Assembly (NCBI GenBank): GCA_038259585.1
Contig: JBBSOQ010000010.1
Span: 30,678 to 94,677 of the forward strand
DNA length: 64,000 nt
Direction: 5' to 3'
Source: Flavobacteriales bacterium
GTDB lineage: Bacteria; Bacteroidota; Bacteroidia; Flavobacteriales; Flavobacteriaceae
In this document: positions 9,676 to 29,371 of the stretch, piece by piece
Numbering within the stretch: the stretch's first letter is position 1
Layout of the letters: each line of letters opens with the position of its first letter
Notes under the pieces: model-generated
The model's database searches: none
Seen by the model: the letters and a program-made list of their open reading frames with translations, nothing else
What the model was told of the DNA's origin: nothing
Position numbers and translations under genes: made by a program

Positions 9676-9707
9676 TTTATGATAGTTTAGATAATTTAAT
9701 AAGAATT

Positions 9708-9745
9708 GTCATCTTGAAATATTCCGAGGAAATCTCAATAATGAC
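9708..9745 (-). other. Imperfect hairpin between leader ORF stop and TBDR start
   Basis: GTCAT..TTGAAAT.TTCC / GGAA.ATCTCAA..ATGAC complementarity. Confidence 0.4.
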
Positions 9746-9757
9746 CGTTGCTATAAA

Positions 9758-10135
9758 TTATCCTAACTGTGGCGGATGAAGGATTTCTAAAGTGAAAAGA
9801 GAAGAATTCAAATTTGGCTTGTAGCCAATATTTTTAAAGGAAGTAATTTCAGTTTCTGAAGCAAAAGTATATTCTGAAATATTTTCTGAAATAATAAACT
9901 GGGGAATCTCCGTTTTTAAAGTTTTGCCACTGAATGGATTTTTATCTTCGGCACCAGCTTCTTTTGCCAGTTCTTTGGTTAAATGACATTTTCCGTTGCA
10001 CTGCATTTCTGGTTTGTCTTTGTTTTCACAAAGTACATTTACTATGTAATCATAATTCACAACATACTCAACCACAGGCCACATTGGTTTGGTGAGCATT
10101 ATTAAGGATGCGACTATGAGAATTACATTTTTCAC
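9758..10135 (-). CDS. Putative Cys-containing leader/arrest peptide upstream of the copper TBDR
   Basis: GTG start; hydrophobic N-terminus; CENKDKPEMQCNGKCH; ends ILHPPQLG*. Confidence 0.7.
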   Translation of the reverse strand: MKNVILIVASLIMLTKPMWPVVEYVVNYDYIVNVLCENKDKPEMQCNGKCHLTKELAKEAGAEDKNPFSGKTLKTEIPQFIISENISEYTFASETEITSFKNIGYKPNLNSSLFTLEILHPPQLG

Positions 10136-23125: not shown

Positions 23126-24292
23126 TCAATGATCATGCCCACCGGCAGAATCTTCATTTAATAATACAAAAGCCCCTTTGGTTAAAAAGGTACTTTCAGG
23201 TTTAAATGCCTCAGATGTTTCAATAGCTGTGAAGCCGTTATAATTCGCTCCAATTTTTACTTCTACGGGGAGAATTTCAAATTCTTCATCGTTTTCGCTT
23301 TCAATTAATAAAACATAATTTTTACCATCCATTTCCACTATTGCATTTTCAGGAAGTGCCAATTGATCTGAAGTACCCGTAACAATCTGTGCTTGCACAA
23401 ACATTCCTGCGGTGAAGTTTTGCTCATCCCTTTCATCTATATGCCCGTGAACCATTGCAATTCTTGTATTTGGATCTATAGAAGTGCCTACTAAATGTAC
23501 TTCGCCCTTAAAGGTTTCTTTTGAAGCTTCAGGAACCGTAAAAAGTATTTCTTGTTCTTTCTTTAGCTGCAATAAATCCTTTTCAAAAACCTTTAATTCT
23601 AAATGAATATGGTCTGTGTTCATAATTTCCATAATCTTATCTGCAGGCGAAACGTAAGTGCCCGTATTTACATACACTTGGGTTACGTTACCATCAATGG
23701 GACTGTAAATATTTACTGCTGAAACAATGTTTCCCGCTTGAACCGAAACAGGATTTATATTAAGCATTTCGAGGTTTTTCTTCAAGCTGTTGTATCGTGC
23801 TAGATTCATTTTGTATTCGCTTTCGGCTTTTAAATAACTTTTTTGGGAAGTTATTTTTTCATCAAACATAATTTTCTGGCGGTCATACTCAGATTTTAAA
23901 TAGGAAAGCTGTTCGGCGGTTTCTAAATAATTCTGCTGCATCGTAATAAACTCAGGATTTTCAATAGTTACCAAACGCTGCCCTTTGGAAACTTTATTAC
24001 CTACCAATAAGGGTGTGTTTTTTATATAACCTCCCGAAAAAGCACTTACTACCGCCCTACTCTGTGGCGGCACGTCAATCATTCCACTAGTTTGGACTGT
24101 TTGGGCAAAAGGTTTTTGGGTGAGTTCTCCTATTTCCATCCTTGCATTTTCAAACTGCGCTTTTGAAAGGTGAATTATTTCTGAATTGTTTTCTTCCGAA
24201 GCCACTTCAAGAGTAGCTTCTTTTGTTTTTGAATTATTGCAAGCTGCCAAAAATAAAATGGAAAGCAACAAAAGTGATTTTATATATTTCAT
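23126..24292 (-). CDS. Heavy-metal RND adaptor (CzcB/CusB-like) lipoprotein
   Basis: Lipobox LAAC, IYSPIDG, C-terminal GGHDH. Confidence 0.9.
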   Translation of the reverse strand: MKYIKSLLLLSILFLAACNNSKTKEATLEVASEENNSEIIHLSKAQFENARMEIGELTQKPFAQTVQTSGMIDVPPQSRAVVSAFSGGYIKNTPLLVGNKVSKGQRLVTIENPEFITMQQNYLETAEQLSYLKSEYDRQKIMFDEKITSQKSYLKAESEYKMNLARYNSLKKNLEMLNINPVSVQAGNIVSAVNIYSPIDGNVTQVYVNTGTYVSPADKIMEIMNTDHIHLELKVFEKDLLQLKKEQEILFTVPEASKETFKGEVHLVGTSIDPNTRIAMVHGHIDERDEQNFTAGMFVQAQIVTGTSDQLALPENAIVEMDGKNYVLLIESENDEEFEILPVEVKIGANYNGFTAIETSEAFKPESTFLTKGAFVLLNEDSAGGHDH

Positions 24293-27300: not shown

Positions 27301-28637
27301 GAACTCTTTACTGTAAGATTGTCTTTTGCCAATTGTTTTTCTTCAGAAGAAAGTGAGTTTAGTTTTATAGCATTCTTACTAATTTGAAATGCTACAAACT
27401 CAACAATAATTACCGCACCGTCAATAATAATTCCGAAGTCAATCGCACCAAGACTCATTAAATTTGCATCTACTCCGAAAATGTACATTAACGAAAGCGT
27501 GAAAAGTAGCGACAACGGAATTACGGATGCAACCACCAGCCCCGAACGAAGATTTCCTAGCAAAAGCACCACTACAAAAATCACTATGAGAACTCCAAGA
27601 ATTAGGTTTTCAGCAATAGTGAAAGTGGTTTTGCCTATAAGCACGCTGCGGTCCAAAACGGGGTTTATGTAAACTCCTTCGGGAAGTGATTCTGAAATAT
27701 TAGCTACACGTTCCTTAACAGCTTCAATCACTTGGTTTGAATTGCCGTCCTTGAGCATCATTACCTGTCCGAGTATTTTTTCTCCTTGTCCGTTTCCAGT
27801 AATAGCACCAAATCGTGGAGCGCTCCCGAATTGGACTTTCGCAATATCCTTCACATAAATAGGAAAGCCATTCTCGCTTTTCACAACGATATTTCCAATA
27901 TCTTTCAAGGAAGAAGCCAAACCTTCCCCGCGAATAAAATAAGCTTGATTTTCCCTTTCAATATACCCACCGCCAGAAACGCTATTGTTTTTCTCCAAAG
28001 CGGTAAATACCTCTTGGGCAGTAATATTCATAGCGTTTAGCTTGTTGGTATTAATGGCAACCTCATATTGTTTTAGTCTTCCACCCCAAGTGTTAACTTC
28101 AACTACGCCTGGAATTCCGGAGAGTTGTCGTTTTACTATCCAATCTTGAATAGTGCGAAGTTCTGTAATTGAATATTTATCCTCATATCCAGGTTTTACG
28201 TCTAAGATATATTGATAGATTTCGCCCAGACCTGTGGTTATTGGGCCCATTTGTGGCGTTCCAAAACCTTCAGGAATATTTTCAGAAGCTGATTGTATTT
28301 TTTCTGCAATGAGTTGTCTTGGTAAATAAGCACCCATATTTTCTTCAAATACGATGGTAACCACCGAAAGTCCAAATTTTGAAACGGAACGAATTTCCAT
28401 TACCCCAGGCAAATTGGCCATTTCCAGCTCCACTGGATAGGTTATAAATTGCTCCATATCCTGTGTGGAAAGGTTGCGAGAAGTGGTGATTACCTGAACT
28501 TGATTGTTTGTAACATCGGGCACGGCACCAATGGAAAGCTGTGTGAGCGAATACACACCAAAGCCTATAAGCACCAGCGTGAACAAACCTATGATTAGTT
28601 TATTCTTTATACTGAATTGAATTATTTTTGAGAGCAT
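24303..28637 (-). CDS. czcA: CzcA/CusA heavy-metal efflux RND with fused C-terminal TolC-like domain
   Basis: GAVPDVTNNQVQV, SLGAIDFGIIIDGAVII, FVPTLDEGD; about 400-aa OEP extension. Confidence 0.88.
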   Translation of the reverse strand: MLSKIIQFSIKNKLIIGLFTLVLIGFGVYSLTQLSIGAVPDVTNNQVQVITTSRNLSTQDMEQFITYPVELEMANLPGVMEIRSVSKFGLSVVTIVFEENMGAYLPRQLIAEKIQSASENIPEGFGTPQMGPITTGLGEIYQYILDVKPGYEDKYSITELRTIQDWIVKRQLSGIPGVVEVNTWGGRLKQYEVAINTNKLNAMNITAQEVFTALEKNNSVSGGGYIERENQAYFIRGEGLASSLKDIGNIVVKSENGFPIYVKDIAKVQFGSAPRFGAITGNGQGEKILGQVMMLKDGNSNQVIEAVKERVANISESLPEGVYINPVLDRSVLIGKTTFTIAENLILGVLIVIFVVVLLLGNLRSGLVVASVIPLSLLFTLSLMYIFGVDANLMSLGAIDFGIIIDGAVIIVEFVAFQISKNAIKLNSLSSEEKQLAKDNLTVKSSSKMMNSAIFGQLIILIVFIPILSLSGVEGKMFKPMALTFSFALIGAMVLCFTYVPVAASLFLKPTETSEKNISVRIMAFLNRFYEPTIRWALSAKRVVLGVAVLILVSTIYLFSTMGGEFVPTLDEGDFVIQPVLKTGTSLSNTIDITTHIEKILIENFPEVDQVVSRIGAAEVPTDPMSMEESDVIITLKPKSEWVSAKNKNELADKFKEALAIIPGMEVEFTQPIEMRFNELITGVRADIAIKIFGEDLEILNKKANEIKSLVENVEGADDITVEKVVGLPEMNVKFDRAKIARYGLNIQDLNEMIAMGFAGKSLGSIFEGEKRFDLVVRLDENNRRDLSNLQNLYVDTPSGEKVPLRELAEIKYTKGAAKISRDDTKRRIVVGINVRSRDLQSVVDDVQKLIDENIQLPVSYTIDYGGQFENLQSAKSRLLFAVPVALVLIFFLLYFAFNSVKEALMIYSAIPLAAVGGVLLLWLRDMPFSISAGVGFIALFGIAVLNGIVLIEHFKELKKEGMTDKKELIVKGAKNRLRAVLLTAAAAALGFLPMAISTGAGAEVQRPLATVVIGGLVTATILTLVVLPVLFSIFDSDKKKIKLRKSKKKALPLTIIILLLGVTGIAQENSKTLEDLKTMALENNAGLKATSLQKEEANALIGSAFNFDKTTVFYEFDENNLAPNNEPLEVFGVQQGFLFPTVYFAEKKVNQRQFEMQSSQYELQKRKTEGLVAAAYYQFQFEKNRERVYESLDSLYQNFAYAAQRRFDLGETNYLEKITARAKQRQLETDYKQSKEDVNIALERLKAAVQSKDSLVISEQPLEKLQLSLPGMEAHPAIEYYNNRNDFFEAKQNLEKQHLLPDISLSYSLGSNSGLSQNLYAYQVGLKIPLLFSGNASKIKASKIAANVSQQQAEDYKIHLDSRKVQLLNEVSKYEEALQYYETEGKSLSEEILKTANGSFKNGEIDFFQYIQSLENAYEIELQHLENLNNYNQAVIAINFLTL

Positions 28638-28730
28638 AACTAATTATAATTTTATCTTTTTTCAACAGAAATTGCCGAAAAATGAAATATTAAAGATTGA
28701 TTTTAACCGCTTTGAAAAAGCGTTAGATAG

Positions 28731-28772
28731 TGACCTTATAAGAATTTGGAAATTTTTATTTCCAGAAGGTCA
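28731..28772 (-). other. Hairpin 6 nt downstream of the His-rich leader stop
   Basis: TGACCTT/AAGGTCA outer stem and TGGAAAT/ATTTCCA inner stem. Confidence 0.5.
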
Positions 28773-28778
28773 ATTTAG

Positions 28779-29177
28779 TTATGCAAATTTTGGGGGTTGG
28801 AAAATGGAAACTTTTTCCAAGGAAGAATATAAATTTTGGTAATGGAAAGTGTGAAATTGATGTATGTTTATTTCTGCTTTTAAACCTAGAATTTCAAAAG
28901 GCGCAAATACTACATCATTTAAAACGTGGTGACAAGAAATATGTTGAAAAGGCAGTTCTTGATGCTCCTGATCTTCTTCTTTATGATTTTTTTGATGTTC
29001 CGATTTTAAGGAACCGTAATGTTTTTCATAGAAAGTAAAAAAATCATCACCATAATTTTCTGAATGATATTCAGCATGTTGTACCAAACGCCCGAGTAGA
29101 AAAATATCCTGCATTCCAAACCCTACGCTTTGAAAAACGATAAGTAGAGAAAAAGTTATGGAGAATAGGTTTTTCAT
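28779..29177 (-). CDS. Putative His-rich leader/arrest peptide upstream of czcA
   Basis: Hydrophobic N-terminus, 12 His, LPF motif, ends SIFQPPKFA*. Confidence 0.75.
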   Translation of the reverse strand: MKNLFSITFSLLIVFQSVGFGMQDIFLLGRLVQHAEYHSENYGDDFFTFYEKHYGSLKSEHQKNHKEEDQEHQELPFQHISCHHVLNDVVFAPFEILGLKAEINIHQFHTFHYQNLYSSLEKVSIFQPPKFA

Positions 29178-29230
29178 TTAAAAAAATAAAATTAGACAAT
29201 AATTTTTAATCATTAACAGATGGGAAAATA

Positions 29231-29371
29231 TTATTTATGAGCTTCCCGTGTTCCCCCGTGGCCACCAGCCACAATAAGCAATACTTTAATGCTTAAAAAA
29301 ATAAATTTGAAAAACTGGATGATGGGGTTCATCATTACAAACCGTTTGAAATTTGATATTCTTTTTGTCAT
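29231..29371 (-). CDS. 46-aa small membrane protein directly downstream of sqr (not in the ORF track)
   Basis: Hand translation MTKRISNFKRFVMMNPIIQFFKFIFLSIKVLLIVAGGHGGTREAHK*; ATG 12 nt after the sqr stop. Confidence 0.65.
   Translation of the reverse strand: MTKRISNFKRFVMMNPIIQFFKFIFLSIKVLLIVAGGHGGTREAHK

Follow-up and report, generated by a model that had tools for sequence, protein, structure and literature searches.

The stretch of DNA analysed here (the window, 64,000 nt of contig JBBSOQ010000010.1 from a member of the Flavobacteriaceae) carries an operon of three genes on its minus strand: a small His-rich open reading frame (ORF), a fusion of a CzcA-type permease with an outer-membrane-factor (OEP) domain, and a membrane fusion protein (MFP). 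The spacer between the small ORF and czcA is 141 nt long and is predicted to be closed by a long-range RNA helix, in which the end of the small ORF with its stop codon (TAA, 28781-28779) pairs with the start codon of czcA. Here we discuss this small ORF, hereafter the leader ORF, as a candidate regulator of the pump genes. The features of the locus are collected in Table 1.

Table 1. Features of the leader ORF, its operon and related ORFs (positions are those of the window unless another contig is named).
Feature	Position	Strand	Basis or remark
Leader ORF, His-rich, 132 aa	28779..29177	(-)	reading frame; ends FQPP-KFA-stop
Hydrophobic N-terminal segment, residues 1-21, predicted signal peptide or signal anchor	29115..29177	(-)	AF2 helix
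His-rich ligand module, residues 34-84 (HAEYH...KHYG...H...EH..LPFQH.SC.H)	28926..29078	(-)	conservation and AF2
Disordered C-terminal tail, residues 85-132: variable linker and F-x-Y...S...[IL][FL]QPP[KRQ]xx	28782..28925	(-)	AF2, alignment
F126-Q127-P128-P129 codons, candidate arrest/pause site	28791..28802	(-)	P128, P129 invariant
Closing helix, 5' strand: GCA (Ala132), UAA stop, CUAA	28775..28784	(-)	folding and covariation
Closing helix, 3' strand: UUAGUU, AUG (czcA start), C	28634..28643	(-)	folding and covariation
Two-stem hairpin TGACCTTCTGGAAAT-AAAA-ATTTCCAAATTCTTATAAGGTCA, 42 nt	28731..28772	(-)	folding; 6 nt after stop
Second spacer hairpin CGCTTT-TTC-AAAGCG	28708..28722	(-)	folding
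Third spacer hairpin TTTTTCGGCA-ATTTC-TGTTGAAAAA(AG), without U-tract	28656..28682	(-)	folding
CzcA-type HME-RND permease fused to OEP domain, 1444 aa	24303..28637	(-)	TIGR00914, PF00873, PF02321
MFP (CusB/HlyD_D23), last gene of three	23126..24292	(-)	domain match
TAATTTTA, resembles Bacteroidota -7 promoter box, ~10 nt before leader ORF start	29187..29194	(-)	alignment A6
46-aa ORF between sqr and leader ORF	29231..29371	(-)	alignment A6
Family-like ORF, Cys-type	9758..10135	(-)	ends ILHPP-QLG-stop
Family-like ORF, 133 aa, outside the window	contig C6:50314..50715	(+)	ends KVFHPPIIS-stop

A hydrophobic N-terminus, 12 His residues and an IFQPP end followed by three residues and the stop codon had been described for the leader ORF from the letters alone, and all are present. 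The N-terminus reads MKNLFSITFSLLIVFQSVGFG, the protein contains one Cys besides the 12 His, and the coding sequence finishes with IFQPP-KFA-TAA. A word-indexed search returned 67 close relatives, mainly from Aequorivita and nearly all of exactly 132 aa; the homologues aligned from it (alignment A1) are 50-91% identical and keep this length. The full profile search extended the family to 466 cluster representatives (E<1e-3), and a six-frame search located it in 125 of 301 Flavobacteriaceae genomes, sampled at approximately one per genus. Against Pfam and NCBIfam the leader protein gave only noise and no model, and a Pfam scan of 35 diverse members of the family found no family in common. Within the genome itself, ORFs of 60-220 aa that end in [QH]PP-x2-3-stop are rare (5 of 5490), and three of the five are family-like: the leader ORF, the Cys-type ORF elsewhere in the window, and the 133-aa ORF on contig C6. 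Database entries for the family are often 104-111 aa long, as gene callers begin at the internal Met22 and lose the conserved hydrophobic N-terminus; the real start is often GTG or TTG. A practical gain would lie in annotation, as the family, present in ~40% of Flavobacteriaceae genera, is now entered as 'hypothetical protein' or given a wrong start at an internal Met.

The leader protein begins with MK and a hydrophobic stretch of 12-15 residues, for which AlphaFold2 (AF2, run with the family alignment) predicts a helix at residues 2-18 with a predicted local distance difference test (pLDDT) score above 84. I7, Q16 and G19 are invariant among the homologues in alignment A1, and a candidate signal cleavage site is not conserved among more distant members (26-45% identity). 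In the latter set little or no variation is seen at Q16, H34, H38, F49, H53-Y54-G55, H61, H72, L75-P76, Y113 and P128-P129; within the ligand module H38, F49 and H53 never vary, and H34, H61, H72 and L75-P76 hardly do. The conserved candidate ligands are H34, H38, H53, H61, H72 and possibly H79, and the sole Cys is not conserved. Between the N-terminal helix and residue 72 the model places five short helices, and pLDDT is >90 to about residue 80; residues 80-132 score 58-67 and have no predicted secondary structure. A Foldseek search of the PDB with the AF2 model found no structural relative (best E = 8).

The tail is constrained in spite of its predicted disorder. Residues 85-110 form a linker that is variable in sequence and fixed in length: the LPF motif and the PP are 52±1 residues apart in 99 of the 116 representatives compared, and three residues separate PP and stop in 93 of them (74 of 90 distinct loci). 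In the related genome loci the tail has the form [FLW]QPP[KRQ]xx-stop, and all 90 distinct tails carry the core [FLW]-Q-P-P. The Gln is encoded by CAA in 50 and by CAG in 40 of these 90, and all four Pro codons occur in comparable numbers; synonymous codons are thus free at F-Q-P-P, and selection acts on the peptide. Judged by this pattern of conservation, the leader ORF is translated and selected at the peptide level. The preference changes at the last sense codon, which is GCA in 53 of 54 cases of Ala and otherwise NCA or NUA. This preference is due to the closing helix and reflects selection on the RNA, so that peptide-level and RNA-level selection adjoin within the same 30 nt.

The closing helix is a predicted long-range helix of 10 bp that encloses the whole multi-hairpin spacer and recurs when related spacers are folded. 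Its register is free of gaps, position stop+k pairing with position AUG-k for k from -3 to +6. Over 47 distinct loci standard pairs occupy 86.8% of the cells in this register, against 79.0±1.0% with shuffled partners (0 of 500 shuffles as high), and the proportion drops to 30-41% in slid registers; a separate count agreed. Compensatory changes are found in seven of the ten pairs (e.g., U-A in 20 versus C-G in 18 loci, and A-U in 23 versus C-G in 9), and RNAalifold recovers the helix unaided from 24 Aequorivita spacers. As a control we used the same-strand neighbouring ORF pairs of the genome with spacers of 50-200 nt: only 1 of 632 has ten out of ten pairs in register, and 1.7% attain the duplex energy of the closing helix.

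Between the strands of this helix the spacer is highly structured; the 181-nt stretch that includes it (28620-28800) folds with -38.6 kcal/mol (z = -6.2 versus shuffles). The sequence-only reading had pointed to the two-stem hairpin, said to begin six nucleotides past the leader stop. The hairpin begins exactly there, and its inner stem is kept in Aequorivita relatives, with G-C replaced by A-U through substitutions in both arms, a covariation also seen by RNAalifold; it is thus real and conserved within Aequorivita, but the functionally telling element appears to be the helix between the stop region and the czcA AUG. The second spacer hairpin likewise shows compensatory changes, in 5-13 sequences per pair among the 24 Aequorivita spacers. 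Spacers are 137-157 nt long with three conserved hairpins in Aequorivita and shorten to ~70-95 nt in other genera, where the stop/AUG helix is retained. The hairpins were also considered as intrinsic attenuators, a role that was dropped, as a terminator scan of the spacer found none on the coding strand and a search of Rfam with the spacer gave no family match.

Downstream of the leader ORF the gene order is stable. In 63 of 76 related genome loci a pump ORF lies within 200 nt 3' of the leader ORF, with a length of 1440-1463 aa in 61 of the 63, and the same order of leader and pump occurs in 19 of 20 further loci from other genera. The MFP gene follows in all eight loci inspected (L015, L027, L036, L040, L041, L057, L063, and L076). 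The genes 5' of the leader ORF vary between genera, and the conserved unit therefore consists of the ORF, the pump and the MFP. The permease, of the heavy-metal efflux resistance-nodulation-division (HME-RND) type, scores 1162 bits with TIGR00914 over residues 1-1044 (cut-off 701), which places it in the CusA/CzcA group; PF00873 covers residues 5-1035 and PF02321 residues 1290-1443. There are exceptions: at the locus of Nonlabens ulvanivorans (L058) PP is followed by six residues and a pump is missing within 500 nt, and the following large ORF lies ~965 nt from the leader ORF in L014 and L026 and ~1140 nt from it in L032. These long gaps suggest insertions or decay. In the fusion itself one frame holds both parts: CzcA (1-1044), a Lys-rich stretch, a signal-peptide-like segment (KKALPLTIIILLLGVTGIAQ) and the OEP domain. 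Its length of 1440-1463 aa is kept in ~60 loci across genera, and an internal cleavage by signal peptidase is one conceivable way in which such a protein could serve both membranes.

Bacteroidota are described as initiating without Shine-Dalgarno (SD) pairing, with mRNA structure around the start as a main determinant (PMC6847099). With initiation tuned in this way, a helix that contains the AUG should repress czcA. In the free mRNA the czcA start would be hidden in the closing helix, and a ribosome on the last four or five leader codons or on the stop codon would have to unzip it. We modelled this by forcing the nucleotides held by the ribosome to be unpaired and recomputing the fold, with the mean unpaired probability from -6 to +5 of the czcA AUG as readout. 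This value is 0.19 for the free mRNA. With Pro128 in the P-site it stays at 0.19 if 11 nt downstream are held open and reaches 0.54 if 15 nt are covered; with Pro129 in the P-site it is 0.46-0.65, and on the stop codon 0.59-0.66. It follows from this model that a ribosome dwelling on the four or five codons at the end of the leader would expose the pump start, so that the dwell time between PP and stop would set the amount of pump. Taken together, we consider it probable that the 132-aa ORF acts in cis as a leader and that translation of its end gates czcA.

What would determine the dwell time is a further question, for which the sequence-only reading had proposed nascent-chain metal sensing. 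By analogy with CutF and CruR, the N-terminus would target the nascent chain to the membrane and the His module would emerge in the periplasm before the FQPP tail has left the exit tunnel. Binding of Zn, Co, Cd or Ni to the His module would then alter a pulling force or the folding of the chain, and hence the length of the pause at Pro-Pro. A chain spanning translocon and exit tunnel would in this way set the dwell of the ribosome, and with it the time for which the pump AUG stays unpaired from the leader stop. Of the traits expected of a CutF/CruR-type sensor, the leader has a conserved candidate ligand module, a disordered linker of fixed length (about 45-50 residues) and variable sequence, PP-x3-stop, the position in cis and a predicted start-hiding RNA, along with a putative export signal at the N-terminus; the complete model of metal-sensing arrest is one that we put forward tentatively. 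It is equally a possibility rather than an expectation that FQPP, with the F-x-Y...S upstream of it, forms a new arrest module outside the RAPP class, in which the His domain, once across the inner membrane, would sense periplasmic Zn, Co, Cd or Ni and whose tail would have been recombined with other ligand modules.

Related ORFs bear on this last point. The Cys-type ORF precedes a gene for a TonB-dependent receptor and belongs to a family with 399 matches, in which a C-x9-C-x3-C cluster is invariant. The two ORFs had been said to have the same architecture, and profile-profile alignment of the His-type and Cys-type families bears this out for the C-terminal 63 columns only (83% probability, E 9e-6). 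Sharing just the C-terminal half fits a portable tail with interchangeable ligand modules. It also fits the suggestion of swapped ligands, the C-terminal module being homologous and the ligand modules different (His versus Cys). At the Cys-type locus the last codons and the stop (GUUAGGAUAAUUUA) are predicted to pair with UAAAUUAUCUAAAC, which occupies positions -23 to -10 relative to the receptor start (window 9676-9757). A second subfamily with mixed His/Cys ligands (HSHHQCCHP) and a PP-x2-stop tail precedes RND pumps, and in it the stop region pairs with positions -23 to -4 of the AUG of its pump. Common to the His, Cys-type and PP-x2 groups is a stop codon inside the closing helix. A fixed distance from the first Pro codon to the first paired base of the helix was considered and rejected, as this is +12 in the His family but ranges from +6 to +12 in the PP-x2 subfamily. 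On contig C6 a spacer of 71 nt separates the family-like ORF from a following lipoprotein-like ORF of 146 aa, and a stop/start helix comparable to that of the leader is not obvious there.

To our knowledge, nascent-chain metal sensing has been shown only for two proteobacterial copper systems, CutF and CruR. In CutF of Rhodobacter capsulatus, Cu bound by the nascent chain on the periplasmic side makes a stall at a C-terminal PPP last longer, and the stem-loop over the ribosome-binding site of the next gene melts as a result (PMC9973294; bioRxiv 10.1101/2025.02.05.636593). The leader ORF resembles CutF, which acts in cis, in the stem-loop between a small gene and the next gene that hides the initiation region. 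It differs in its ligands and motif (His and FQPP, compared with CxxxC and PPP) and in its downstream gene, a Zn/Co/Cd-type CzcA-OEP fusion rather than a multicopper oxidase; no CXXC or CxxxC copper-binding motif was found in the leader. Unlike in CutF, the helix covers the AUG itself and is built with the leader's own stop codon, the AUG being hidden because Bacteroidota do without SD pairing. The general concept is already known: CutF-like proteins upstream of ACR_tran genes are catalogued in Bacteroidota in the bioinformatic CutF survey, where this phylum makes up 19% of the list with ACR_tran, OEP and TonB neighbours, and where clusters with only His have HupE/UreJ genes, not pumps, as neighbours (PMC9973294). 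DUF2946 (PF11162) gave no match at E<=1 with the leader and 35 family members, and none at E<=10 in the six-frame genome; weak DUF2946 matches in other Bacteroidota classes end in RAPP-x3-stop.

CruR (Bp2923) of Bordetella pertussis is similar in its conserved spacing between ligands and PP, with 45 residues compared with ~43-52 in the leader, depending on the ligand counted. It is also predicted to be poorly structured, and the Cys-type sibling in the window likewise precedes a TonB-dependent receptor. In contrast to the conserved pairing with the start codon seen here, CruR works through Rho-dependent termination in a GC-rich spacer (PMC9426467), and it is said to sense cytoplasmic Cu with no need for its signal peptide. 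Common to the leader and the CutF/CruR systems are PP near the stop, a conserved spacing from ligands to Pro, and a first gene on the same strand followed by a short start-shielding spacer. Arrest has been described with two Pro codons in the P- and A-sites (PMC12992588). The RAPP core R-[AG]-P-[PG], as defined for such peptides (PMC12992588; PMC10951233), occurs in none of the 90 tails.

Likewise, SecM/MifM/VemP and ApdA/ApdP carry an export or membrane signal at the N-terminus and an arrest segment at the C-terminus, only a few codons ahead of the stop. The ribosome halted there rearranges an mRNA helix further downstream that covers the start of the next gene, and a pulling force brings about release (PMC10951233; PMC10987492). 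These peptides monitor Sec/YidC and not metals, with arrest cores that are R-A/G-P-P/G or unrelated, as opposed to the candidate FQPP of the leader. CzcI of Cupriavidus metallidurans, a small protein directly upstream of the czc RND operon, has been proposed as a regulator that senses metal (cited in PMC9973294); it has no C-terminal Pro motif (PMC9973294) and was compared with the leader by description only. DUF6660 (PF20365), which comprises small Cys-rich proteins of Flavobacteriia, has a member in a congeneric genome (L129) with an N-terminal hydrophobic helix and a Cys/His cluster, which ends in FTQPPRV-stop 115 nt before a czcA-like gene. PF20365 did not match the leader, the 35 family members or any part of the genome, and a comparison of the leader family with the L129 protein by hhalign was not significant. 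This tail and position suggest that DUF6660 is probably a Cys-rich sibling of the same architecture. Our literature searches returned no account of His-rich FQPP proteins encoded ahead of CzcA-OEP fusions in Flavobacteriaceae (the clusters of the CutF survey being compared by description), nor of a stop-codon/start-codon helix or any arrest peptide of Bacteroidota.

Several points weigh against the model of metal-sensing arrest. A pause prolonged by metal, the case of CutF, and a pause relieved by metal, the case of CruR, are both conceivable, and either the paused or the released state could be the 'on' state of the pump, depending on the length of mRNA held open. With Pro128 in the P-site and 11 nt held open the helix is left intact, so the stalled state may not expose the AUG. 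If any terminating ribosome opens the helix, the outcome would be plain translational coupling without sensing, and the confidently predicted, conserved helical domain of residues 1-80 would suit a stable periplasmic metal-binding protein equally well. Plain di-proline pauses are usually relieved by EF-P. As neither DUF2946 nor DUF6660 matches, homology to the proven sensors is not established, and the F/L-Q-P-P of the leader lacks the Arg that is essential in the RAPP of CruR (PMC12992588).

Part of this would be accounted for if the ORF encoded a stable His-rich protein, periplasmic or anchored in the membrane, that binds metal and assists the pump in a role like that of CusF or CzcI, the helix serving only stoichiometric translational coupling and QPP acting as a contact or degradation tag. 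We regard this as unlikely, although the invariant His residues lie in the confidently helical residues 1-80, conservation extends along the entire leader, any terminating ribosome opens the helix in the masking model, FQPP is no known strong arrest motif (PMC12992588), and CzcI provides the example of a small protein that precedes czcCBA and has no Pro motif (PMC9973294). Against it speaks the tail, predicted to be disordered yet fixed in length to ±1, with PP three residues from the stop in ~80% of the 116 representatives, which is unusual for a flexible contact peptide. The same tail also occurs on unrelated ligand modules before unrelated genes (the TonB receptor and the 146-aa lipoprotein-like ORF), and the ORF is the first gene, in cis, in the loci examined.

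Gating could alternatively act on transcription, the position of the ribosome governing Rho- or pause-dependent termination in the 141-nt spacer, as in CruR, and not the initiation of czcA. CruR is the closest studied analogue before a TonB receptor and acts through Rho (PMC9426467), and the long Aequorivita spacer with its three conserved hairpins offers potential pause sites. This seems quite improbable to us, as the coding strand has no intrinsic terminator and the spacer is AT-rich and highly structured, where a rut site would be C-rich and unstructured. The stop/AUG helix is moreover kept in the shorter spacers of other genera; start-codon pairing is the conserved feature, which points to control of initiation. 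As for a chance ORF next to a chance hairpin, both without function, an AT-rich context does make short inverted repeats common, but the occurrence of the family in 125 of 301 genomes, the peptide-level selection, the covariation of the helix and the single case among 632 control pairs refute it.

If the proposed gating of czcA by the leader holds, the family would be a likely regulator of HME-RND operons without an adjacent two-component system. Should metal-sensing arrest also prove correct, nascent-chain metal sensing would extend to another phylum, to other metals through His ligands before a Zn/Co/Cd-type pump, and to ribosomes blind to SD sequences, for which hiding the AUG replaces hiding the SD. 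It would further provide an arrest core lacking the Arg on which all RAPP-type peptides depend, and a modular family of transmembrane nascent-chain metal sensors, in ~40% of Flavobacteriaceae genera, controlling TonB receptors and pumps. The His-type leader of an efflux operon and the Cys-type leader of an uptake operon in one genome form a natural comparison.

Within ~8 kb the neighbourhood comprises sqr-like, cytochrome bd and metallo-β-lactamase (MBL)-rhodanese genes, the MFP, and a gene pair for an HxlR regulator and an alcohol dehydrogenase (ADH). Regulators of the MerR, ArsR and CzcRS types were not found within this distance, in agreement with the earlier remark that no metal-sensing regulator lies nearby. 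The consensus of the Bacteroidota -7 promoter box is TAnnTTTG, and on this ground TAATTTTA (Table 1) may be part of the leader promoter. A block TA(T/A)(A/T)TTTTG/A is conserved just 5' of the start codon in 13 Aequorivita loci (alignment A6); its distance of only ~10 nt from the ORF start implies that the 5' leader is very short. In several of the relatives (L017, L027), but not in the window, a palindrome TGAT-N4-ATCA lies ~35-40 nt 5' of the ORF start, ~20-25 nt 5' of the -7-like block. The palindrome may be a Crp/Fnr-type site, and transcriptional control may accordingly differ between species. Finally, an ORF of 46 aa that lies between sqr and the leader shows codon-like conservation (...VAGGHGGTRE) across Aequorivita in alignment A6, a pattern consistent with a real microprotein.

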